Source of the DNA: a virus
Length of the DNA stretch: 64,000 bases
Virus record (IMG/VR): IMGVR_UViG_3300012348_000111
Span: 32,001 to 96,000 of that record
Reading direction: 5' to 3' (one strand)
The notes beneath the pieces are model-generated. The model saw only the letters and a list, made by a program, of their open reading frames with translations. It made no database searches and had not been told where the DNA came from. The position numbers and the translations under genes are program-made. Positions 17,301-58,315 of the stretch are shown piece by piece. Within the stretch, counting starts at the first letter, position 1, and each line of letters starts with the position of its first letter.

Positions 17301-20300
17301 ACAGAAGATACAATCGCACTTTCCATTACTGTTCTGTCTACTAAAGCGTCTAATAAGTATTGTAGTTTACCATCTTCTTTTATTTGAATTAAATCTTTTG
17401 TTGCTTGTGCAGCACCTTTACGGGATAATTCACCTACGATAAATTCTACAAGCTTTTCTTTATTGTCAAGTTTTTCTAAGAATTCGTTTGAATCGTATTC
17501 TACTAAGTTCTTAACGTAGTTTCTATAAAGTTCATATGCTTCTAATTCAGCATTTGTAGTTGCATCTTTGTAGATAAGTTTTCTTAACTGAGAAGAGAAT
17601 ATATTTTGGAAAGATTCTTTGTTTTCAACTATTACTTGTTCTTTAAGATATTTGATTTCAATAATACCTGGAGCACTTGGTGCAGTATCTACTTGACCAT
17701 CTTTAAATAAATCAATAGCTGGAACTGTTTCAGCAATCTTAGTTCCACTACTAAACACACCATAGTCTGCTCCTGAAGCATAAAGCTTAAATAAAATATC
17801 AGCTGCTCTAGGATTAGTTACTGCCTCTGAAGGAAGTAAAGGTTTAACTGAGTACTTATGGAAGATAGGAATAGAAGGACCAAATATAGACTGATTGTTT
17901 CCTGCATACTGAAGTTTCTTTACACTAAACTTAAATTTAGGTTTTTGGTTTAAAAGATTATCTAATTGTCTTTGAAGCATAACTGCTTCATACTGATTAG
18001 CATTCTTTAGTTGAAGATAAGTGCTCCAAATATTATTTTGGCGAGTAAACTCTTCTTCCATATCTAAAGTAATACCTGTAGACGTTGCATAGAATCTTCT
18101 AAAGAAATCCATAGTAGCTACAGACGCAGCGTCTTGTGCTTTAGAATCTTTATCTTTAGTGTAAGCGTCTCTTACTTTATCGTAAGCTGATGATTGAGCT
18201 GTTTCAGATACTACTGGATTATCATTAAATACTAAGTAAGAAAGTTTAGTAGGATCTTTAGGCAATACATTAATAGGAAGATTATTTTCTATTGCGTATT
18301 GTTGAAATGCTTTTTCTTGAGCATAAGAATCGTTTTCTACATTGTTTAAAGCAGCTACAGTAGTTCTATCCATATTGGTATATGTACCATAAGCATTCCA
18401 TGCAGACAAACGTTTCTCGATATCTTTAGCGTTTTTATAGTAGTAAGGATGATTAAAGAATAGTTTGTGTTGCTCTACACGCATTACAAAAGAATAGAAA
18501 TGATACTTAGCAAGTTGTTCGTTTGACAGATTGTATCCAGCTAAAGTGTCTTGACTTACTTCTACGTTGTTATTAAGATACTCGTTAAACTTAGAATAAA
18601 CTTCTTGAGCATAACTAAGTTTTAAGAAAGCATCTTCAAGTGTTGTGTTAGCAGGAAGTTCTTTAAGATCATTTATAAGACTTTGTTTTAAATCAGGACT
18701 GTCGATAATTTTTTCAAAGTAAGCAAGTTTTACATTTTCAAGTTTAGATTTAAATAAATTTTGATTAACCTTGCTATTTTGAGTGTCTATTTCTGATTTA
18801 AGAATAGGAAGAATGAATTGTGAAAATAAACGGAAGTCTATTCTTACTTCATTTTCTTTAGTAAAAGTGTATTCAATGTTGTCTGATTTAGCAAGACCTA
18901 AGAACTTTCTAGCTGATAGATCTAAACCAATACCTCTTGTTGTACTTTTACCTGATAGACGATTTAATTCTTCCACACCACCATTAAGTAATCCTACTAT
19001 GTCAGCATAGTGTTTCATGCTTGACAGAGAGTCAATGGTTTTTTCTCCATCAAATCCGTCTTCAATACCTAATAAGTTAACGATTTCAACTTTTCTAGGT
19101 TTACCGTTTTCAACTATTCTATTACCAGCTACATTAAAAAGATATTTTAATACCCAAGATCCTCTAGCGTTGGTATTCATTGCTTGATTCAAATGTGGTA
19201 TTTCTTTTTCTACATCTTCTAAAGTTTTATAGTTGGTACTATCATTCAAGATAGATAGAACTTTAGTCATGTAAGTATGTTGGTTAACACTCCATATTTG
19301 CTTTCCTACAGCATTATAACGCATGTCATTAGCGTATGTAGGGTTAGCATCTATTTCAAGATTTAAAAAGTAATTAACAGCACTTACTTCGGATTTAATT
19401 TTACCTGTTTCAGTTTTGTGTTCTTTACTTATTAAACCTAAAGGAGTAAGCATAGGTGTTCCTACATCAGAAAGAGATTTAAGTTTAGTTCTAATTAAAT
19501 TTAAGTTTTGAATTACTGTTTCTGGTTTTTCAGTTCTTAATGACTCCAGACCTAAAGAAGTATAGTTTAAACCTAAAGCTTGTAATTGTAAATAAACTTG
19601 ATCATAAAATCCTCTTAACGCATCAGGATCTCCTGTAGGAATGGATGGTGTCTTTTCAAACATACTAAAGAACTCTTCAGTATTTAATGCATAAGAACCA
19701 TTAGTAGTCAATACTTTAAATGGACCAGCCTCTGTATAGAAATCAGAATCTAACTGACTTCTTAATTGTACAGCATCTAATGAAAGTGCTTTAAGAACTT
19801 TAGTTTCTGTAATATTACCTTTGTCGTCTCTTTCTATTTTTACAGTAGAACCGTCTATGTAAGGCATAGTAAAGAGATTAAAGAATTGTACTTTAAATGC
19901 TAAATCTGTAATTCTTGTTATTGTATTATCAGCTTTAGGTAAGTAATCTAAGAAGGTATTAAATTGAGGAAACTTAACAGCAACTTCTTTGATTTTATTG
20001 TACATTTCATTGTACGTATTTAGTCCTGTTAATTCTCTTTGTAGAATAGTCCAGTTGCTTTCAAAATCACCAAGTAATGCAAAACCTAATACGGGATCAG
20101 TTACTTTTTCAGTTCCTTCATATCTAGGTAGTGTTCGTATAGCATTAATGATTACATCACTAGCCATATCTTTTTGAGACATTTCCTCTATAGATTTTTC
20201 AAACTCACCTATACCTTCATTCTCAGGTTCGTTAAGTACTTCATCTATAGCATTAAGAATGTTTGTAGACTTAATTTTATTGTCAAAAAGAGTAGAGTTA

Positions 20301-35058: not shown

Positions 35059-35439
35059 TTATGTTAGACTTAATAGATATTGAGTCTTAGAATAAAGAGC
35101 AATAATCTCATCAATAATATTTTGAAGATGTGTATTGTCTTTACCAAAAACTTCTCTGTGTTTCATTAAATATTCTTTAATGTATTTAATGTGAGCTTGA
35201 GCATTCATATATTCAGATGCTGGGATCTTAATATTTAATCTTTTACCTATTGTTCCATAATAGGATTCAATTAAATCGTCAACAAGATCTAATAAAGAAT
35301 CATAAAGACCATTTAATGCTTTGTGTTCAGCATACGATGTTGTTGCTAAATGAGTCAAATGAATGATGTCTCTTGACTGAAAAAGTTGACCTAAAACTAA
35401 TTCAGGTTTAATTGTGGTGAAAAGTTCTTTTTCTTTCAT
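35059..35439 (-). CDS. Dps/ferritin-like protein
   Basis: HLTHL.TTSYAEHKAL..LYD......D.LIE ferroxidase-like pattern; LQNIIDEI...YLLSL. Confidence 0.75.
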   Translation of the reverse strand: MKEKELFTTIKPELVLGQLFQSRDIIHLTHLATTSYAEHKALNGLYDSLLDLVDDLIESYYGTIGKRLNIKIPASEYMNAQAHIKYIKEYLMKHREVFGKDNTHLQNIIDEIIALYSKTQYLLSLT

Positions 35440-35445
35440 GGTATT

Positions 35446-38400
35446 TTAGTTGGTTTGTGTTATTTGTAAATGATTAATAAATCTGTAACGTGAATACTTA
35501 TCTTGAATTAATCTTACTTTACATAAATCAGATTTGATTTTTTGTTTCTGATAAGATACAGAAGAAGGTATTACAGTTTTAGTATTTGGTACTTTATCTA
35601 TTGGGTGTTGTAATTTCTTATCATCCCATTTAGTTGACCATAACGGTTGCCCATTAGATTGATTCACAATGCTCCAAAATCCATTAAACGTATATATGTT
35701 CTCTCTACGTGAGATAATCGTTTCTATGCCGTTTAAAGTGGTTCTAGGGTACATTATCTTTTGGCGAGTATTACCAAACTCTTCAGGAATAAGATTAATT
35801 ATTCCAGATGACTGCTCTCTATTGTAAATAATAGCTTTGGTAAAGTTTGCCAAGTTTTTATTATTTGCTGTTGCAATAGAGTAGTATTCGTAATCAGAAT
35901 AGTATTCTTGAATATCTTGAATTAAACTGATTGAGTTTGTTGTTGCTGTTTTAGGAAAAGAGTTTACATTGTATTCAAGAATGTAAGGATACAACTTATT
36001 GTAGTAAGTTTGATATGTAAGATTATTTAAGTTATGATTCCAAGTAGACGATCCTAATGGTGTGTTTATTATTGTTTGGAAGTTACCTAACAATGAAACA
36101 TAGTAGTTAGGAGTAAATGAATAGAAAGAAATAAAGTTTTTAAGTTTAGGTGAATACCCTATAGTCCAAGAATGATTTTCCCAAATATCTTCATTTGAAA
36201 ATAATGCTTCTGTTTGAGTTCCTGTTATAACAAACTTTTTAGTTTCGTCATTATAAGTAACACTTGTTTTACCAGTTAACTTATAATCGAGTTTAGTTAT
36301 AAATACTCTTTCAAATCTCTCATCCCATCCCATAGAAATACCAATTCCTTTTGCTGGATTATCTATATCCGCATTAGGGAAATCTTTTAGTATTCTAAAT
36401 GGAAGGTTTTGTTTAAACCAGTTAAAGTTTGTATCTGATTTAATTTCACTAAATCCTTGTTTAGAAATTTGATAAATATGTCCTCTTTTAGCATCTACCC
36501 AGAATGTTCCGAATTCAGTTCTTATTTGAGCTTTATGTTGTGAACCTACATAACCAATATCTGATTTAGATATGTCTATAGGTTTTTGTTTAAACATACT
36601 AGCATCTCCTATTTCTAGTTGAACAGGTGATGTAGATTCTATTTGTACTCTTGCACCATATACTTTAGTTGTGTTTTCAAAACGAGCATAAACTAATTCG
36701 TTTTCTCCACCAGTAAGGTTAATAAGTCTTCCTCCTTCTTTAGGGAAATCAAAGAAGTTACCTCTCTTAAATGTTTGCCACCCATCACTAAAATATTTAG
36801 TAGTATTTGCTTTTTCAGAATAAATAACTCTATTCGGATGTACTACTACACATGTTCTATTTGGATTATCTACTGTGTATGGTAAGTTAGGGCTTATATT
36901 TTGAGCAGAGTATGTTGCGTTATAGTGATAGAAGTTATCAAACTTAATTGGTACGTTTACTTCTTTTAACCACTCGTCAGGAATTTCATCACTTACGTTA
37001 GGATAGAAGTTTTCTTCTCTATCGTTTCTACCGTGTCTAAAGTCTACGTTAACATCTGACTCTACAAAGAAAATAGGAATACCATAAGAAGCTGTATAGA
37101 ACTGTCCTTTCTTATAAAGAGAAACTGAGCTATTAGCTGAATCTAAATTTATCTTAGGTTTCTTTATATCGTAAAGTGAAGCTAGTGCTAATTGTATGGC
37201 TCCTATTTGTAATACTTGAGCAGCATTAGTTGCTCCAGCAGGAATAGGAGTCGGTAATATATTATTAGCTGATATTACAGAAGCAGTTGCTACTCCTATA
37301 GCTGTTGCGGCAGCACCAACCAATATACCCAAAGATACCCAATCAATTTCATCTGAAGAAGTTCCTATGAAGTAAGTAGGATAAGCTAAGTTAGGAAATA
37401 ACCAGTAATCAAAAGGCATGTCTTTTGTTTTAGCTGGAAGATTTGCTAAGTTTCTAGTAAAGAAAGAATGCTTGCGTTTAAGAGCAAATTTATTAATATA
37501 AGTATCTCCTCCAAATGCAGGATAATACTTAGGTTTTAATACTGCTTTATCTGCAACAAAATTATCTTCTAAATCTACTATGTAACCAGTTGATACGTAC
37601 CTTATGTTTTCTATTTGGCCGTATTGATTTTCAAATGTTCTTTTAACTGAAGTATAGTAAGCTCTAGTTCTTTTAGAACTATCTACAAGTATTGGATTTT
37701 TCTTTATTGTAGGATCTTGAATTTCAGAAATAGTATATCTAGATGTATCGTAGTTATCATCAACTATAGGGCCAGTATGATGAATAAAAGTATCATTTGT
37801 TTTTAAATATACACTTGATTCTCTTAATCTATTATGTACTGGAATATCGTCTTCAACACTAGATATTTTAGAATCTAAATATTTTCCTATGTCTAGAAAT
37901 CTTCTTTTGTTTCCTGTGTTACCAATAGGAGAATAATTGTTGTATGCAGCTACTGAGTTATATTGCCAAGCAAAGTTTATGTAAGGTACTAACTTTTCTA
38001 TAATATCGTAAAGAAGTTGTGTTTGAGCAACTTGATTTGCAATATTGGTTGTTAGTTCAGAACCTAGTGGTTCGGTTGCTGAAGCTTTTACAGAACCCGT
38101 AAGTATATAAGCAGCTCCCGCACCTAGTACAAAAATTAAAGAATCGGATACTAGATTTAAAAACTTATATTCAGGATGTTCTTCTACTGGTACAAAGTGA
38201 CCTAATACTTGACCATACTCAATTGTTTCAAGTTTAAGTTCAGTTCCTATCTTAGGATATTGAAAAGTAGTGTCTGGTGAATAGAAAGTAAAACGATTTT
38301 GTAATCTAGGAGTTCCTTGATAGTTAAAAGGATTTTGCTGAAAAGAAGTACTTAATGATTCACCCCTATCTCCTTCTTCATACCATTCAGCTTTGTTTGC

Positions 38401-41259: not shown

Positions 41260-41715
41260 TTATTTTACTTTGTTGTTAAAAATCAATTTTCCTAAATTTC
41301 TTTTGTTTGTTCTATTCAACATAAAGTTGAAACATGAAAGTATAGGATTCCTTTTATAATTAAGATAAAGATGTACTTTAAACATGTATCCATTAGTATG
41401 AGAGTTTCTATTTAGAACTCTTTCTCCTGTTTTTCTAAAGTGATTCCAATCAACTCTAGAAGCATTTTTACTAAATGGTTTTATCTTAATTAATTTTAGA
41501 ACTCCTAACTCAGGTATTTTAATGTAATAGCTTTGAGAGTACAGTTTGTTTATCATCTTTTCGTGTACTAAAACAGGTATCGATGAAAACATTTCGTAGC
41601 TAATATCTTTTCTACCAGTGTCTTTTAAGAATCTTCTGTATGCAGACATGTTTAACATGTTCACATCTGATTCTAAGTTTTTTCTTTGTTTAGGGTTGGT
41701 TTGGTTTTCTGACAT
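41260..41715 (-). CDS. IHF/HU-like DNA-binding protein
   Basis: IPELGVLKL...VDW...NSHTNGY; sits between ring genes as in crAss-like phages. Confidence 0.65.
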   Translation of the reverse strand: MSENQTNPKQRKNLESDVNMLNMSAYRRFLKDTGRKDISYEMFSSIPVLVHEKMINKLYSQSYYIKIPELGVLKLIKIKPFSKNASRVDWNHFRKTGERVLNRNSHTNGYMFKVHLYLNYKRNPILSCFNFMLNRTNKRNLGKLIFNNKVK

Positions 41716-41717
41716 TA

Positions 41718-42359
41718 TTATAATTGTTCGTCTCTATTATTATCTTGTTCTTCTGGGGCAAGTTTATGATAATTAATTAAAGACTGATTGCAAAGTTCTA
41801 CAAGAGGATCAATTAAGTAAGCGGGTATTTTAAATTCTTTATCATACATACTTACGCAATTAACACCATCAATATCTTCTATTGATTCTGTAAAGTATGC
41901 GTATATATTAATCCTTTCAACATCTGGATCCAAAACGTATAAATAACTATCTTTGATAGTGTAGAATTTTTTGGGCGATTTGATCCTAAGCTGGCTATGA
42001 TTAATATAATCTCTTATTGAAGTTGGGTGAATTTCTACAGAATTAGATGGATTAAACACACCTTGAATAAAGTAAGAATATAAACCTTCTTCTATTTTTG
42101 GTAACTTTTTTCTAGTTCTTCTTACTGGACAATTCAAATCACACTCCGTACCATTAACTAAAACAAGATCAACACATTCGTAATTTTGATATAAGTTGTC
42201 TGATGTAAGAAGTTTTCTTTGATTCCCCTCCCTTTTAATAAGAACAGATGCTTTCTGCTTTAAAAGACTATATAAATAACGATCACTGATTAAATCATCA
42301 TCAGCAAGAAACTTGTTTGCATTTTTCAGCCTAGAAATTAAATCAGCGTTAGATACCAT
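41718..42359 (-). CDS. Tail ring protein
   Basis: 213 aa; EFKIPAYLID...DNNRD C-terminus; synteny. Confidence 0.65.
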   Translation of the reverse strand: MVSNADLISRLKNANKFLADDDLISDRYLYSLLKQKASVLIKREGNQRKLLTSDNLYQNYECVDLVLVNGTECDLNCPVRRTRKKLPKIEEGLYSYFIQGVFNPSNSVEIHPTSIRDYINHSQLRIKSPKKFYTIKDSYLYVLDPDVERINIYAYFTESIEDIDGVNCVSMYDKEFKIPAYLIDPLVELCNQSLINYHKLAPEEQDNNRDEQL

Positions 42360-42387
42360 TATTTTTTAAATAAAGTTTGGGGTGATA

Positions 42388-42418
42388 CAAATATAATATA
42401 ATTTATAAGTTTTGTCAA
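42388..42418 (-). promoter_or_regulatory. Bacteroidota-type promoter
   Basis: TTG-N20-TATATTTG. Confidence 0.75.
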
Positions 42419-42439
42419 TAAATAGAAATTAGTTTAAAC

Positions 42440-42464
42440 TAAAAGAGCCTGAATTAACAGGCCC
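42440..42464 (-). terminator. Rho-independent terminator
   Basis: Minus strand GGGCCTG-TTAATT-CAGGCTC-TTTT. Confidence 0.75.
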
Positions 42465-42472
42465 ATTCTAGC

Positions 42473-42501
42473 GACAGGAAAACCAACCAAAAATACCCGT
42501 C
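42473..42501 (-). ncRNA. Putative regulatory hairpin with UUGGUUGGUUUU loop (3'-UTR element or sRNA)
   Basis: Minus strand GACGGG-UAUUUUUGGUUGGUUUU-CCUGUC; the G-U pair forms only on the minus strand; directly precedes the terminator. Confidence 0.5.
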
Positions 42502-42509
42502 AATATTTT

Positions 42510-44492
42510 TTATTCAACTGCCCAGGTAATTCCACCTAAAGTTACGATTAAATAATCTCCAGTGTTCATACCTATAGTTGAACCAGTATAGTTAAATAAA
42601 GATAAGAATGGTGAGCCAGAAGAAGTTTCTATTCTTAAAATAAGCATATATACTCCTTGTAATGTTCCACCACTACTATAGTGTTGTACTGGAAGAATAC
42701 ACTCAGTATCACCTCCAAAAGAAAGACCTATTGAACTTGCTTGGAAACAATCAATACCTGTGTTGTTTGGCATAGATTGAGCTGATCCAGGATTAGTTAC
42801 TTTAAATCCAGCAGTACCTCCTTTAAAAGTTGCAAGTCCACTTGATTCAAAATGTTTAATTGTAGGATAAACAGTACAGTTTCTTCCCAAATCTACGCTA
42901 AATGGTCCACCACTTATTGGGAATGTAGGACTAGCAATCGGAACAAGAGTGTAATCTTGAAGGATTGGTAAAGAAACAACTCCTTCTAAATAACCAGAAG
43001 ATCCATTATATTGATATGCTGAACTCCATTGTGTTTGTTGAGTTGATCCCGCTACTTTTCTATATACACCTGTTCTAATAAGTTTAGGTTGCCAGCTAGA
43101 AGATCCTATACCAGTAAGAATATGATGAGTTAAGTTTGTTACCGAACCATAAGACACATCACCCATATTAGATAAAACGCAAGATTCTAAAGAAGAACAA
43201 CTAAATGTTGATCCTCCAACAAGACTAATAGTGGGTCCACAAGATGTATTTGTTACAACAAAGTCAGAACTAAATTTAAGATTAAGTGCTGAAAGTGCAG
43301 TAGCAATTTGATTTAAGTGTGTTTGAAGAGTTGTTGTGTTTGTAAAACTACCTAATGCTTGAACATTAAATACAGAATTAGGTGTATATGGTGCAGTAAA
43401 ACAACCCCAGTTAACTGTATAGTTAGAAGAAGGTGTTGCTCCTACTGCTGCAATTGTAGAACAAAGTTGAGATACAAGTAAGTTTACAGCATCTTTTAAA
43501 GAAGATGTAGTTGATCCACCAGTTAAGCAAGAAGTATTTACAGATGTTGGAAGTGGTGCTGAAGGAGATCCTGTGATATACTGATTTATGTTAGAAACAA
43601 CAAGATTAGTAGAAGATAAAGAATTACTTAAAACTGAGTGTATACCACACATGTTATTAGTAACCCAGTTGATGTATTCATATACATTGCTAGATGTGGG
43701 TTTAGATGTAAATGCGTATCCTATGCAAGGGTTAGCATTTACACTTGTCATTGTTAGATTTGTATCGTGAGTACAAATTTTAGATCCGTAAGAATCTAAA
43801 ATATTGACAAGAGTAGATGTTCCACTTGTAAGAACTCCTGTAAGGCAAGAAGGTACTACAATTGCTGGTTTTTCTAATGCTTTAACTCTAGTGTTAATTG
43901 AACATAATGCAGCAGCAGTAGCTTCTACAAATCCTTCAGCATTGGTAATAGGTGTACCTACTGATTCTAAGTTACCTCCTACTCTTAAACAACCATAGTT
44001 AAATCCTGTATAGTCTAATCCACTAGGGCTAGTAGATGCGATTAAACAAAGTCTGTTGTTAAAGTTTTGAATTACTGAATCTAAGTCAGCACCATTTGCA
44101 ATAACTGCAGCTAAAGTAGATATGGTAATTGTAATATTGTTTGTTGGTGATGTCCCACCTAATAAAGTACCTGCAATAGTTAATGTGTCGGATACTTCAT
44201 AACTAGATCCACTATTATTTAAAGTTACTTCGTATGTAGTAGATCCTGCTCTACGAATAACAGTAAATGTTGCTGATGTTCCATTACCTCCTGTTGCAGA
44301 TGCTACAACTGTAGTATCAACAGATGGTGCTACAGCAGTTCCAGTGAAACCAAATGTAGCAATAGCTCCTGATTGACAGAATAGGTTTGAACCACTATAT
44401 GTGATACATTTAGCATAGTTTGTAGAAAGACAACCTACTGATCCACAAGGTTGTGCTGTATTGGTTCCGTAGCAATCGTTACAAGTAGACAT
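42510..44492 (-). CDS. Cys/Ser/Thr-rich tail or fibre structural protein
   Basis: 660 aa; Cys-rich N-terminus (C..YSG) shared with 44507..45019; GSSY..SDTLTIAG beta repeat. Confidence 0.65.
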   Translation of the reverse strand: MSTCNDCYGTNTAQPCGSVGCLSTNYAKCITYSGSNLFCQSGAIATFGFTGTAVAPSVDTTVVASATGGNGTSATFTVIRRAGSTTYEVTLNNSGSSYEVSDTLTIAGTLLGGTSPTNNITITISTLAAVIANGADLDSVIQNFNNRLCLIASTSPSGLDYTGFNYGCLRVGGNLESVGTPITNAEGFVEATAAALCSINTRVKALEKPAIVVPSCLTGVLTSGTSTLVNILDSYGSKICTHDTNLTMTSVNANPCIGYAFTSKPTSSNVYEYINWVTNNMCGIHSVLSNSLSSTNLVVSNINQYITGSPSAPLPTSVNTSCLTGGSTTSSLKDAVNLLVSQLCSTIAAVGATPSSNYTVNWGCFTAPYTPNSVFNVQALGSFTNTTTLQTHLNQIATALSALNLKFSSDFVVTNTSCGPTISLVGGSTFSCSSLESCVLSNMGDVSYGSVTNLTHHILTGIGSSSWQPKLIRTGVYRKVAGSTQQTQWSSAYQYNGSSGYLEGVVSLPILQDYTLVPIASPTFPISGGPFSVDLGRNCTVYPTIKHFESSGLATFKGGTAGFKVTNPGSAQSMPNNTGIDCFQASSIGLSFGGDTECILPVQHYSSGGTLQGVYMLILRIETSSGSPFLSLFNYTGSTIGMNTGDYLIVTLGGITWAVE

Positions 44493-48115: not shown

Positions 48116-49057
48116 TTAAAGACTATTCATTCTATACTTGTTAATTAACTTTTCTTTGAAGGCTTCGTATTCTTCTGTATGTTTTGGATCAGCCAAGAAT
48201 AATTCAAATTCTTCAATTGATTTAGACCATACAAATTCTCCTTCATATACAATACCACTTTTAACTCTCACTACGTTTTCACTAACAAGGTCTTTAACCA
48301 AAGCTTTAACGTCTAACAAGTCATCTGAGTAAGCTGTAATTGTATTAAACTTCTCAATAGGATCATAACCTAGTCCTGAAGTAGAAGTACGCAAGAACTC
48401 ATCAATTGCATTATATACTTCTTCTTCTGTAGCTAAGTTAGATAATCCCAAACCGATAAGTTTTTGGATTTTCTTACGTTTCAAAGAACTAATAGTATCA
48501 AGAGTAGCAATTGCACTATTGATGCGTTTCTTACGTTCAAAAGTAGATTTAGTTTCAATTTCTCCATCGTAAACATAAAATCTTACAATGTTAGTATCAA
48601 CTCTCTTACTTTCTACTTCATCTAGAGATTTTGCAATCATTTCGGTTTCCATCAACCAGTAATAGTTTACTGCGTCTCTTGGATTATCCATATTGAAAAG
48701 ATTATCTGTATCTTCTAGATTGTATCCATTTTCTTTTATTTCATCATAGAACGTACTGTTTGGTTCTAAAGATTCGTCAAGGATTGATTCGTAATAAAGT
48801 CTTAAACTTTTTACTCTTTCGAATTCTTGATCTCTAGCAGTAGAACTTTCGATTGCTCTAATTCTAATAGAGTTTTCATCAAGTCCAGTTCTAATTACAC
48901 CACGTGAATCAACACGAGGGAAAAATTTCTTAATTGTTCCAGGTACAAAATTGTAACCTTCTTTGTACAACGACCCTTCTAATGTTCTCATATTAGAGGG
49001 TTCTCTTCTGATTGGGCGAATTACTTTTACGCCTTTTGATTGATTGGTTTCTGACAT
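48116..49057 (-). CDS. Conserved Crassvirales MCP-adjacent protein (gene 75-like)
   Basis: Position right after the MCP; RTGLDE motif. Start probably MSETNQ (49057) rather than 49084. Confidence 0.6.
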   Translation of the reverse strand: MSETNQSKGVKVIRPIRREPSNMRTLEGSLYKEGYNFVPGTIKKFFPRVDSRGVIRTGLDENSIRIRAIESSTARDQEFERVKSLRLYYESILDESLEPNSTFYDEIKENGYNLEDTDNLFNMDNPRDAVNYYWLMETEMIAKSLDEVESKRVDTNIVRFYVYDGEIETKSTFERKKRINSAIATLDTISSLKRKKIQKLIGLGLSNLATEEEVYNAIDEFLRTSTSGLGYDPIEKFNTITAYSDDLLDVKALVKDLVSENVVRVKSGIVYEGEFVWSKSIEEFELFLADPKHTEEYEAFKEKLINKYRMNSL

Positions 49058-49086
49058 ATTTGTTGGTTTATTTTTTAAAGCCAATT

Positions 49087-49108
49087 GGGAGGGCTTTTAT
49101 ACCCTCCC
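49087..49108. other. GC-rich stem-loop downstream of the MCP
   Basis: GGGAGGG-N8-CCCTCCC; T-tract only on the plus side, so on the MCP transcript it is more likely a stabiliser or partial terminator. Confidence 0.55.
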
Positions 49109-50687: not shown

Positions 50688-51851
50688 TTATCTAAAATAT
50701 TTTGCAAATAAATCATCTTGTTTACCTGATTTACTTGATGTTTTTGTTTTTGTTTTTAGACCTTTGAAAATTGTATTTGTTTCTTCACTTACTGCTTTCT
50801 TTTTAACAGGACTTAGATCCAAATCTTTTTGAACTAATCTTGCTACAGCTAAAAACTTTTTAGGGTCTTCTTGACGCATTGTAGCTAGACGATATTCAAA
50901 ATCAGATATTCTTTGACCGTTAGGAAGAACGTGTGGTTTATCTAAAACAAAAGAAAATAGTTCTTCAGCATCGGAGTTATTAATAGGATATCCTTGAATA
51001 TCTCCAGCCTTTACTGATTCTTCTAACGTTTTAGCATAAAGTTCTTCTCTTTCTTGCTCACGTTTTTGAATATCTTGCATTCTTACTTCTGCTTCTTGAG
51101 CTAAACGTAGACGTTCTTCTTGCATTTTTTCTACCAATTTACCTTGATATTTTCCTGCATAAGCTTCTAGTCTTCCGTTATCTCTAGCATAAGCTAACTG
51201 ATCCTCGATTTCATCATCGTCCATTCCAGTCTTTGCTAAGTAAAGTCTAAAGATTCTTTCCTGATTTATTTCTTCAGAAAGATCTACATTCTCTACTGTT
51301 TGTTCATTACTGAACATTTGCAAATACTGAGGAACTGGAACCTTATTAATAAAGATGTCTTCGATTAACTTTACTCCAGCTTCACCGTATGTTTCCATTG
51401 CTAATTCTTCCATCTTAGCCCACATACGATTGTCTACAGTTTTTTCCATCACGTTAATGAATGATTTTTCATTCCATTCTTCAACTTGATTATCTTCATC
51501 TTCAAGATCTAGAATTCCTGCTTGAGCAAGACCCTTTGCAAATACTTCGAAGGTGTTGTCTGATTCATCATCATCATCATCATCTGATGTAGTATCTTCT
51601 TCCTCTTCTTCTTCTTCCTCTTCTTTAGGAGTTGGAGGTGTTGGTGTTATTTCTTTCTTAGGTAGAGGTAAATCATCTTCAGAATCATCTGAATCAGTAT
51701 CCTCTAAAGGATCAAAATCTTCACCGTTTAAAATATCTGGTTTGATATTTTCGTTAGGGTCTGGAGTAAGTCCATCTGAATCATCCAGAGGATCGTTATC
51801 CATAAAACTTTCAAAGAACTCTAAACTTTCGAGTTTGTTATCGGTACTCAT
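50688..51851 (-). CDS. Acidic scaffold-like protein (gene 77-like)
   Basis: D/E-rich N-terminus, coiled coil, directly upstream of the MCP. Confidence 0.7.
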   Translation of the reverse strand: MSTDNKLESLEFFESFMDNDPLDDSDGLTPDPNENIKPDILNGEDFDPLEDTDSDDSEDDLPLPKKEITPTPPTPKEEEEEEEEEDTTSDDDDDDESDNTFEVFAKGLAQAGILDLEDEDNQVEEWNEKSFINVMEKTVDNRMWAKMEELAMETYGEAGVKLIEDIFINKVPVPQYLQMFSNEQTVENVDLSEEINQERIFRLYLAKTGMDDDEIEDQLAYARDNGRLEAYAGKYQGKLVEKMQEERLRLAQEAEVRMQDIQKREQEREELYAKTLEESVKAGDIQGYPINNSDAEELFSFVLDKPHVLPNGQRISDFEYRLATMRQEDPKKFLAVARLVQKDLDLSPVKKKAVSEETNTIFKGLKTKTKTSSKSGKQDDLFAKYFR

Positions 51852-51873
51852 AATGGTTGGTTTTAGTTTAATT

Positions 51874-51903
51874 CAAAAATAGTATTTTAAAAAAATAACA
51901 CAA
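51874..51903 (-). promoter_or_regulatory. Bacteroidota-type promoter of the scaffold/MCP operon
   Basis: TTG-N19-TATTTTTG. Confidence 0.75.
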
Positions 51904-54400: not shown

Positions 54401-56407
54401 TTAAAGTCTAAATGGGGAACGTGTTTGTCTAAAAAGAGATGGTTTTTTTGTAGATCTAAAATACTCTTTCATACGAGTATCATCATCATTGTTTCTAATT
54501 ACTACTTGAGTATTTAGTGATTTTGCCATAGCAAGTGTTAAGCCGAAAGAAACTACTCGGTCAACGTTAAGTTTAGGGGTAAATTTAATAAGTTCTTTAA
54601 GTAAGAGTGGGTCTAATATTCTAGACACACCTAATCTTTCTCTTGTTGTATTTCCTTGTTCGTCTCTTTCTATATCAATTACTTCTGTTAGATATTCTAT
54701 GATTAAGGAAAGGATATAGTTTTTTATATCTTTAGTCATGTGTATTCCATAATCACGATTAACAGTAGAGTTAGGATGTATATCGTTAAGAAAAGTAGGT
54801 GTTCTTTCGAGAAGTCTTTGTCCTTCATTTTTATCTACGCAATGCTGTATAAAACCATAGTCCATGTTTTCGACTAATGATTTAGCGTTATAGTATTTAA
54901 GTAATAGTTTGGTTGTTTCATACCAGGTATCTATCTTTTTAGGACGACCCGTATAAGAAGCTACTACTATGTTTTGCCAACCTTCACCAGCTAATCCGTG
55001 TACTCTTTTGTATATGTAGGTTGAACCTAAAGATGTAGAGTAATGAGCTTGAGATTGTTTGTATGGGTCAGTTCCAGCTGTGTAAAGACCATAGGGTGCG
55101 TCCATTAAAGGATATTCCCATATTTGAATACATCCTTCTAGATTATCTGAAGGTTTGGTTGGAAAGTTTTCTACAGGTTTTTTATCTGTAAATTTATGTC
55201 TCACTTTACCTTCAACATCTAAGTATAATTCTACGTTATCAGCTTTAATGTCTTGATTGATAAGTTTACTTAGTTGTTCTTGAAGTAAGTCTACTGGAAA
55301 AATGTTTTGAGATAATTCTAAGAAACACTCTTCATGTGTTAGAGGATAATACATTACCTCTTTAAGGTAAGCCTCTAGACCACTAGATTTCTTTGTTTGT
55401 TCTCTAGTCTTTAGGATCTGTTCTTTACCTTTTTCTTCATCTGCTATCCAAATAGTTATATTGTCTAATTCAGATGCTTCTTTTACTTCTAAATGTAATC
55501 CTAATGGTACTGGGGTTTTAGGTACTTTAAGAGATTTTGTTCCTGGTACAAACAAACCATATGACTTTCCTGTTTCATTTGTTTCAACTGAAAGAAAGTT
55601 ATAAGCTTCTGGATTATTGAAGAGTTCTTCAAGATCTCCTGCTTTAGTCATGTCTCCAGAAGTTCCAATAACAATAGGAGAACAACGCCATCCATAAGGT
55701 GAGTCAAAACAAGGAATGGTCGCAGCAAGACAAGCTAACATATCTCCTTTACCTGCTTCTTCTAACATAAAAGAAGAAAGTGTAAGACCTGCTGCTGCTT
55801 CCGTATTGTTTCCTTCATTGAAGTTTCTTACGTGAATCTTTGACCATTCATGTCTTTGGTTGGTTTTTTTGTCTTTATATCCAAGAGTTACTTGTCTTTT
55901 CCAATCGTCTTCTATACGAGGAAATCTAAAATACTCTGGTAAGTTTCTAAGAGTTAAATCTACGGCTTGAGTAGTATTGTTTAAGTCAGGTTGATTTAGA
56001 GCTGAGATAAGGTGATCTCCACCTTTAAGAGTAATTGCTTTATGTGCAATATAAGACGATGTGAGCATAGTCTTTGAAATACGACGACTACCTACAATAA
56101 CAACACCTTTCTTTCCATCTTCATGTGTTTCTGCTCTTGTGATAGCATTATCGATTTCAAAGTAAGTATCCCATAGCTGAGGTCTACCTAATTGACGAAC
56201 TACTCTTTTACCTTGTTGTATATCTAAGTAAAGAGAAGCATAGTTTAAATGCCAATAAATAAAAGGAGAAAAATAAAAACCATTGATTGTTATACCTTCA
56301 GTAATTTTTTTATCTTCATTTTCCCAAAATGCAGTATACTCCCTTGATTCTGGATCAGGGATTGATTTAACATTTATTAGAAATTCCGAACTATTAAAAT
56401 TACTCAT
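54401..56407 (-). CDS. terL: Terminase large subunit
   Basis: Walker A-like GSRRISKT, Walker B FMLEEAG, motif C GTSG, nuclease AGTDPY...E...DRV. Confidence 0.92.
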   Translation of the reverse strand: MSNFNSSEFLINVKSIPDPESREYTAFWENEDKKITEGITINGFYFSPFIYWHLNYASLYLDIQQGKRVVRQLGRPQLWDTYFEIDNAITRAETHEDGKKGVVIVGSRRISKTMLTSSYIAHKAITLKGGDHLISALNQPDLNNTTQAVDLTLRNLPEYFRFPRIEDDWKRQVTLGYKDKKTNQRHEWSKIHVRNFNEGNNTEAAAGLTLSSFMLEEAGKGDMLACLAATIPCFDSPYGWRCSPIVIGTSGDMTKAGDLEELFNNPEAYNFLSVETNETGKSYGLFVPGTKSLKVPKTPVPLGLHLEVKEASELDNITIWIADEEKGKEQILKTREQTKKSSGLEAYLKEVMYYPLTHEECFLELSQNIFPVDLLQEQLSKLINQDIKADNVELYLDVEGKVRHKFTDKKPVENFPTKPSDNLEGCIQIWEYPLMDAPYGLYTAGTDPYKQSQAHYSTSLGSTYIYKRVHGLAGEGWQNIVVASYTGRPKKIDTWYETTKLLLKYYNAKSLVENMDYGFIQHCVDKNEGQRLLERTPTFLNDIHPNSTVNRDYGIHMTKDIKNYILSLIIEYLTEVIDIERDEQGNTTRERLGVSRILDPLLLKELIKFTPKLNVDRVVSFGLTLAMAKSLNTQVVIRNNDDDTRMKEYFRSTKKPSLFRQTRSPFRL

Positions 56408-56730: not shown

Positions 56731-56929
56731 ACTTTTCTAAAAATTCTTCTAAGTCTAAATTGGATAAATCTTCAAGGACAGTAGTGTAGAAATCTTCTTG
56801 TTTACCTGTGTGATGATAAGCATAACCTGCTTTCCAAAATATCTTCCATGTTGCATAGAGTTTATCTTGAAGAGTTGGGTTTAGATTTAAAGGTTTCTTT
56901 TTTAATTGATTGGTTGGTTGGTTTTCCAT
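56720..56929 (-). CDS. Hypothetical protein
   Basis: 69 aa, overlaps the next gene. Confidence 0.6.
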   Translation of the reverse strand: MENQPTNQLKKKPLNLNPTLQDKLYATWKIFWKAGYAYHHTGKQEDFYTTVLEDLSNLDLEEFLEKYGN

Positions 56930-57943: not shown

Positions 57944-58287
57944 TAGTCCTTTTTAGTTTCTACACCTAAAAGTAAAACTAAACTAATTGCTTCTTTATCT
58001 GCAGGAACTAGTTTTCTGTTTACTTGATTTTTTTCAAGAACACCTAGTTTTCTAAGTCTTGTGATTCCATTAGAAATTACTTGTACAGATGTGTTGTTTT
58101 TTTCAGCAAGAATCTGTTTTACATTTTTGTCTAGTTTTCCATAATAAGATACATTGGCTAAAATATTAGTGTATAAGTCAGATAGTCTGTATCCAGCAAG
58201 TCTTAGAATAATATCTATATATGCTTGTTGGAATGCGACTCCGTCATCATACTTTCTAGCTATTTTAGCTGATTTAACGGCTTTCAT
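57943..58287 (-). CDS. Putative winged-HTH DNA-binding protein
   Basis: LAEKNNTSVQVISNGITRLRKLGVL helix-turn-helix. Start reassigned to MKAVKS (58287) because the promoter box lies inside the longer ORF. Confidence 0.6.
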   Translation of the reverse strand: MKAVKSAKIARKYDDGVAFQQAYIDIILRLAGYRLSDLYTNILANVSYYGKLDKNVKQILAEKNNTSVQVISNGITRLRKLGVLEKNQVNRKLVPADKEAISLVLLLGVETKKD

Positions 58288-58315
58288 TTTGATTGGTTTA
58301 TTTTTAAAATTAAAC

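Follow-up and report, generated by a model that had tools for sequence, protein, structure and literature searches.

Why should an RNA hairpin located between a stop codon and a terminator in a crAss-like phage present a loop complementary to the translation start sites of several of its late genes? The window, that is, the whole 64,000-nucleotide stretch of DNA analysed here, comprises bases 32001-96000 of a 105,101-bp IMG/VR virus record (IMGVR_UViG_3300012348_000111), with a G+C content of 32%. Nearly all of its genes lie on the minus strand, and its gene content is that of a crAss-like phage, including a P22-like portal (817 aa), a major head protein (509 aa), crAss tail ring protein 2 (213 aa, PF25702), a DUF5856/Dps-like protein and giant virion proteins. 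Promoters have the Bacteroidota form (TTG ... TAnnTTTG). The nearest cultured relatives of the ring protein are phages of Flavobacterium psychrophilum and Cellulophaga baltica, at 25-29% identity, and the host is therefore probably a member of the Flavobacteriia.

A first-pass annotation, made from the sequence alone, had proposed that a 3'-UTR-derived sRNA pairs through this hairpin loop with AACCAA motifs at six gene starts, acting either as a repressor or as an anti-SD-like adaptor. To determine whether this proposal holds, we re-examined the locus, tested the matches against chance within the genome, and then analyzed the hairpin and its putative targets in close and distant relatives.

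Anatomy of the hairpin and its matches at start sites

All coordinates and matches given in the first-pass annotation were confirmed. The features of the locus and of the proposed targets are as follows.

42473-42501, minus strand: hairpin 1 (seed hairpin), a 6-bp stem (42496-42501 with 42473-42478; one G-U pair) with a 17-nt loop (42479-42495) that holds the core GGUUGGUU (42481-42488).
42438-42472, minus strand: hairpin 2, a long stem-loop/intrinsic terminator (upper stem 42445-42464, then a U-rich tail partly paired with an A-rich 5' flank).
42510-44492, minus strand: 660-aa ORF whose 3' UTR carries the element; it has no Pfam or PHROG family and is variable between relatives, and the gene at the same position in Cellulophaga phage phi17:2 is annotated as tail fibre.
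42388-42418, minus strand: Bacteroidota-type promoter of the next gene (TTGACA at 42413-42418; TATATTTG at 42388-42395), conserved in relatives.
41718-42359, minus strand: downstream gene, crAss tail ring protein 2 (PF25702), used as the anchor to find relatives.
56914-56929, minus strand: target 1, start of the 69-aa gene; the tag runs from the G of the ATG (13-14 nt complement, with a second overlapping copy).
51849-51864, minus strand: target 2, leader and ATG of the 387-aa scaffold-position gene (11-nt complement at -13 to -3), about 12 nt downstream of its own promoter box.
49052-49069, minus strand: target 3, leader of the 312-aa gene after the major capsid protein (8-nt complement at -11, and AACCAAUCAAUC after the ATG), with no promoter upstream.
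58282-58299, minus strand: target 4, leader of the 113-aa gene (termed the HTH gene in the first-pass annotation; no Pfam family above cut-off here), 7 nt perfect, or 13 bp if one G-U pair is allowed.
41694-41715, minus strand: target 5 (weaker), first codons of the 151-aa IHF-like gene, with two overlapping 9-nt complements.
35437-35456, minus strand: target 6 (weaker), leader of the 126-aa DUF5856/Dps-like gene (8 nt at -16).

The hairpin begins 8 nt after the TAA of the 660-aa ORF (42510-42512), and hairpin 2 follows at once. Here, a terminator scan identified a 7-bp stem at 42445-42464 with 5 G-C pairs, followed by UUUUAGUUU. In folds of the terminated transcript the loop core is left unpaired (P about 0.85). 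By contrast, in a transcript that reads through the terminator, the minimum-energy fold pairs GGUUGGUUU of the loop with AAACUAAUU downstream of the terminator, so that the seed might be hidden in read-through RNA and exposed only in terminated RNA. The stretch 42477-42490 is the exact complement of 56914-56927, which starts at the G of the ATG of the 69-aa gene, while 11 nt are complementary to the scaffold leader (51854-51864) and 7-9 nt to the other four starts. A 13-nt complement of the loop was also found well inside a coding sequence, at 55853-55865 (minus strand; codons K-K-T-N-Q), about +540 from the start of the 668-aa terminase-like gene, which could be a further target site or a coincidence of codons.

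Within this one genome, the statistical support was positive but modest. The 14-mer with up to 2 mismatches occurs 3 times against 0.54 expected. AACCAA occurs 19 times in 120 start windows against 63 times in gene bodies, a five-fold enrichment (binomial p about 1e-7), and is the commonest of all 15 A4C2 permutations there. Further, duplexes of -14 kcal/mol or better with the loop occur at 6 of 120 starts against 16 of 1752 internal windows. However, start regions are about 50% A, many A-rich hexamers are similarly enriched (3-5-fold), and shuffled loops also find 8-10-nt matches in start windows (p=0.03 in the own genome; p=0.09 by duplex energy). An exact scan of IMG/VR for the 14-mer returned over 119 mostly unrelated contigs and was uninformative as such. 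The weight of the evidence comes from conservation and covariation in relatives.

Conservation of the hairpin in close and distant relatives

Neither a nucleotide search of the region against GenBank phages nor a search for related loci with the 660-aa protein gave any match. The ring protein, in turn, retrieved 48 IMG/VR contigs at 57-75% identity. All 48 have the hairpin at the same place, with loop core GGUUGGUU, although the C-terminus of the upstream gene differs widely. There are 29 distinct versions, all of which fold into the same two hairpins with the core open, and hairpin 2 shows compensatory changes at 11 of 14 pairs. In some relatives the U-run of the terminator is interrupted; in one close-clade subgroup (loci L150, L152-L159, L162, L165 and L166) it reads UUUUGGUUUAA, about 55-60 nt after the loop, which gives a second UUGGUU at the very 3' end of the presumed RNA. 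In four other close relatives (L122, L124, L131 and L132), when the core was held unpaired, the 5' arm of hairpin 1 (UUGGCAGGAU) could pair instead with the spacer and the lower 5' arm of hairpin 2 (AUCUUGCUAG), which may be an alternative conformer or an artefact of the folding constraint.

An alignment-based locus search with the close-clade ring protein only re-found the same clade. A profile of more divergent ring proteins, however, brought in 32 loci (L319-L350) in which that protein is only 23-38% identical. Most of these loci have a hairpin with wholly different stems, placed directly before the ring-protein gene or about 0.7 kb upstream of it, in which the loop reads (U)UUGUUGGUUU(U) and a strong terminator follows immediately. 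The hairpin plus terminator was also kept in all five complete or near-complete distant genomes that were retrieved. MAFFT could not align the 3' arm of hairpin 1 across clades, and formal pair counting was therefore done on the 8 lineages that share one loop geometry. In these, 8 of 8 stem pairs show changes on both sides, and 91.7% of cells are paired, against 56.5% in shuffles (0 of 500 shuffles reach this) and 33-56% when the partner is slid. Nine loop bases are invariant, with UUGUUGGUU kept in the 8 distant lineages while the stems vary, and UUGGUU is invariant in 27 diverse elements. The same architecture passed our filter at only about 1.6% of other TTGGTT sites; those in the genome that passed do not resemble the element, and each genome has one copy.

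No Rfam family reaches E<1 on 42200-42700, and none reaches gathering score in the whole window, the only hits being noise (snoRNA models, E above 1); there was thus no match to GcvB, c4, FopS or any other curated covariance model.

The cultured Cellulophaga phage phi17:2 (NC_021798.1) has the element in the same place. After its tail-fibre gene and before its ring-protein homologue (19888-19960 of the retrieved locus) lies an 11-bp stem with loop UUUUUGGUUUUU, followed by a terminator. Five of 18 sense-strand AACCAA copies in the 40-kb stretch lie in start windows, which make up 3.2% of that sequence, and AACCAA lies at the starts of gp047, gp048, gp051, gp053 and gp055. Phage phi4:1, of almost the same length and with the same protein match, probably carries the element too. 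The feature is not universal among crAss-like phages, since Bacteroides phage crAss001 (MH675552.1) has neither the element nor the tag, and the ring-protein region of Flavobacterium phage FpV4 that was read also shows neither. In crAss001, the gap before gp40 holds only a terminator and a promoter, and the starts of gp13, gp27, gp31, gp33 and gp38 show purine-rich, SD-like GGAG/GAAG stretches 5-12 nt before the ATG instead of C/A-rich tags. Translation signals therefore differ between branches of crAss-like phages.

Covariation between loops and start-site tags

We next investigated whether the tags follow the loop. Loci around the terminase-like gene were retrieved from 34 of the close relatives. 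The orthologues of the HTH gene, the 69-aa gene, the scaffold gene and the 312-aa gene after the capsid gene nearly always carry AACCAACC-like tags at their starts, whereas the capsid, portal, terminase and six other genes never carry the tag. In the 69-aa orthologues the tag sits in different reading frames, and it is therefore conserved as nucleotides, not as codons. Between the capsid gene and the tagged leader of the next gene lies a small G+C-rich hairpin (49070-49095, minus strand; AAAGCC...GGCUUU in the window, with GGGGAGG-type stems before other late genes in relatives); these may be attenuators or processing sites within the late operon.

A first covariation was observed in G001, the most divergent member of this set (108 kb, retrieved whole). 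Its loop has only one GGUU, the loop complement reads ..AAAACCAAUAAACC.., and its orthologous HTH, scaffold, post-capsid and 69-aa starts carry AAAACCAAU or AAAACCAAA instead of AACCAACC. A 70-aa gene of this phage (31550-31762; L209) carries a 14-nt perfect complement just before its ATG. The base after AACCAA is C in 3 of 33 start-window copies in G001, against 21 of 66 in the three other whole genomes. Within its terminase-like orthologue, at the same distance from the start as the internal site in the window, lies a 10-nt match to its own loop variant, with AAC changed to AAU.

In distant phages, the loop complement matches 13 nt perfectly in the leader of the post-capsid gene in locus L330 and 10 nt in L319, and this gene is the best-ranked start by duplex energy in L330, L319, L324, L328, L335 and L305. 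In G006, one of the distant genomes, the full 9-nt complement lies just before the ATG of the 419-aa, 340-aa (twice), 66-aa and 119-aa genes, and six starts have 8 nt or more, against 1.15 in shuffles; 7 of the 8 genomic copies of the 9-mer are sense-strand tags at or near gene starts, and the eighth is the loop. Three further distant genomes, G007, G008 and G009, show the same before genes of 414-420 aa, 334-337 aa and 46-75 aa. By synteny and weak similarity, the genes of about 415 aa lie between portal and capsid (the scaffold position), and the genes of about 335 aa follow the capsid gene. Capsid and portal are only 23-28% identical to those of the window, so the target set is very old. 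Over all, the longest non-self match to the loop complement lies in a start window in 10 of 10 genomes analysed.

Taken across lineages, the bases 5' of UUGGUU in the loop and those 3' of AACCAA in the tags take four matched forms: UUGG with CCAA in the main clade; UUUG with CAAA in the distant clade, before the 415-420-aa, 334-340-aa and 46-75-aa genes of G006-G009; UUUA with UAAA in G001, in the HTH and scaffold leaders; and UUAA with UUAA in L330. Against composition-matched shuffled loops, the single-lineage tests were weak (p from 0.01 to above 0.5), since A-rich words abound at starts, but they combined to Fisher p=1.5e-4 over 17 lineages outside the main clade, not all of which are independent. 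Not every test favoured pairing. Departures of tags from the perfect complement are mostly A/C register shifts (AAACCAAACC), not the C-to-U or A-to-G changes that RNA pairing would favour (28% wobble-compatible in targets against 39% in controls). Further, in a loop-swap test within the close clade, loop flanks and tag flanks did not covary consistently, and other clades' loops sometimes matched better.

In line with the first-pass annotation, AACCAA is enriched at starts and the loop is conserved, far beyond close relatives, so that both sequence-based tests it had named came out in its favour. No support was found for its anti-SD-like adaptor variant, although no comparison with a Bacteroidota 16S rRNA was made, and its target list needs revision. 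The deeply conserved targets are the scaffold-position gene, the gene after the major capsid protein, a gene of about 70 aa and, in the closer clade, the HTH gene, while the IHF-like and Dps-like genes are conserved targets in only some lineages.

A putative riboregulator and its alternatives

In order to reconcile these results, we favour, with moderate confidence and in the absence of expression data, a conserved riboregulator built into the 3' UTR of the tail-fibre-like gene. It would consist of a seed hairpin presenting a G/U-rich loop (core UUGGUU; here UUGGUUGGUUUU), followed directly by an intrinsic terminator, and may act as the 3' end of the long late transcripts or as a stable fragment of about 70-80 nt processed from them. 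In either form, the loop is inferred to base-pair with a C/A-rich tag (AACCAA plus 2-6 further bases) within about -25 to +20 of the start codon in a small, conserved set of mainly head-assembly genes, although many individual pairings are only 7-9 nt. The features on both sides are RNA features: a covarying stem, an open loop and a terminator on one, and on the other sense-strand tags that track the start codon, including inside coding sequence and, for the post-capsid gene, where no promoter is near. Since Bacteroidota ribosomes probably initiate on unstructured A-rich regions without Shine-Dalgarno pairing, a duplex at that place would most likely block 30S loading and lower translation as late transcripts accumulate; repression is nevertheless an inference.

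Among the alternatives, all of which we consider unlikely, the best surviving is that of two independent features, in which the tag is simply an unstructured translational enhancer of a few highly expressed genes, and the loop binds a protein, for example a phage or host termination/antitermination or RNA-stability factor acting on the adjacent terminator. The A/C register shifts, the constant position of the hairpin directly upstream of a terminator, and a stem sequence in the close clade (TTGRCAGG/CCTGTCA) more conserved than structure alone requires are in line with this. However, it does not explain why loop and tags changed together in four states across lineages and in several orthologous genes at once, nor the 13-14-nt perfect matches in the window's own genome, G001 and L330.

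Somewhat less likely is a DNA-level motif, that is, one asymmetric double-stranded site (AACCAAC-like) bound by a phage DNA-binding protein, for which the HTH or IHF-like gene products are candidates, and used in one orientation near gene starts and in the other upstream of the ring-protein promoter. Covariation of a motif and its inverted copy is equally expected for a protein's operator set, and sequence covariation alone cannot separate the two. In the HTH and scaffold genes the tag lies 12-18 nt downstream of the promoter -7 box, a classic operator position, and the loop lies about 95 bp upstream of the next promoter. Against this, the inverted copy is always framed by a covarying stem, presented in its loop and followed by a terminator, tags also occur just after the ATG and before the post-capsid gene where there is no promoter, and all tags are on the sense strand.

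It is also doubtful that the same pairing occurs only in cis, with the hairpin remaining on the polycistronic late mRNA in a 3'-UTR to start-region contact like icaR of Staphylococcus aureus. The scaffold promoter (near 51880), the post-capsid gene and the hairpin lie on one strand with no strong terminator scanned between them here, so they may share a transcript, and there is no room for a separate promoter between the stop codon and the hairpin. However, the tagged genes upstream of the scaffold promoter (69-aa gene, HTH) and downstream of the terminator (IHF-like, Dps-like), and the tags on the opposite-strand early region, could not be reached in cis; transcript boundaries are unknown. 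Finally, a compositional artefact, in which a U/G-rich loop always finds A/C-rich partners in A-rich start regions, as shuffled loops and other enriched hexamers might suggest, is very unlikely given the invariance of the loop across phages with capsid and portal proteins only 23-28% identical, the covarying states and the combined shuffle test.

The proposed mechanism resembles that of the enterobacterial GcvB sRNA, whose G/U-rich single-stranded R1 seed pairs with C/A-rich elements in and upstream of translation initiation regions of many mRNAs, the C/A-rich site itself acting as a translation enhancer (PMC4474525, citing Sharma et al. 2007). GcvB, however, is a free-standing, Hfq-dependent chromosomal gene of Proteobacteria with a linear seed, while here the seed lies in a hairpin loop inside a phage 3' UTR, the targets are the phage's own head genes and the host phylum appears to lack Hfq. 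The GibS and FopS sRNAs of Bacteroides thetaiotaomicron also repress by pairing with translation initiation regions of Shine-Dalgarno-poor mRNAs (PMC11697453), but are host-encoded with their own promoters, and carry a different seed at a single-stranded 5' end. The c4 antisense RNA of phages P1 and P7 is, in all likelihood, processed from a longer transcript and pairs through exposed loops with the ribosome-binding region of the phage's own genes, yet acts on one downstream operon (icd-ant) for immunity and is not a 3'-UTR element. In the icaR 3' UTR and the RsaE/RoxS-type C-rich loops of Firmicutes, the pairing motifs are apparently anti-Shine-Dalgarno (UCCC against GGGA) rather than directed at a private C/A-rich tag. 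The start-associated sequences of Cluster K mycobacteriophages (Pope et al. 2011) seem to be a comparable phage-private tag at the starts of a subset of genes, with a different sequence and host phylum and no established antisense partner.

More tentatively, the circuit may be ancient and span a whole family-level branch of environmental crAss-like phages of Flavobacteriia-type hosts, controlling how much scaffold, post-capsid (auxiliary capsid) and small head-module proteins are made relative to the untagged major capsid protein. This would be RNA-based stoichiometry or timing control of head assembly in hosts that do not use Shine-Dalgarno pairing.

Very little is known about post-transcriptional control in crAss-like phages, or about how phages of Bacteroidota set translation levels without Shine-Dalgarno sequences. 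If the favoured reading holds, this would be the first riboregulator family described for this phage group, with a small, deeply conserved regulon of head-assembly genes and a seed that has co-evolved with its targets over divergences at which capsid proteins keep only about 24% identity.
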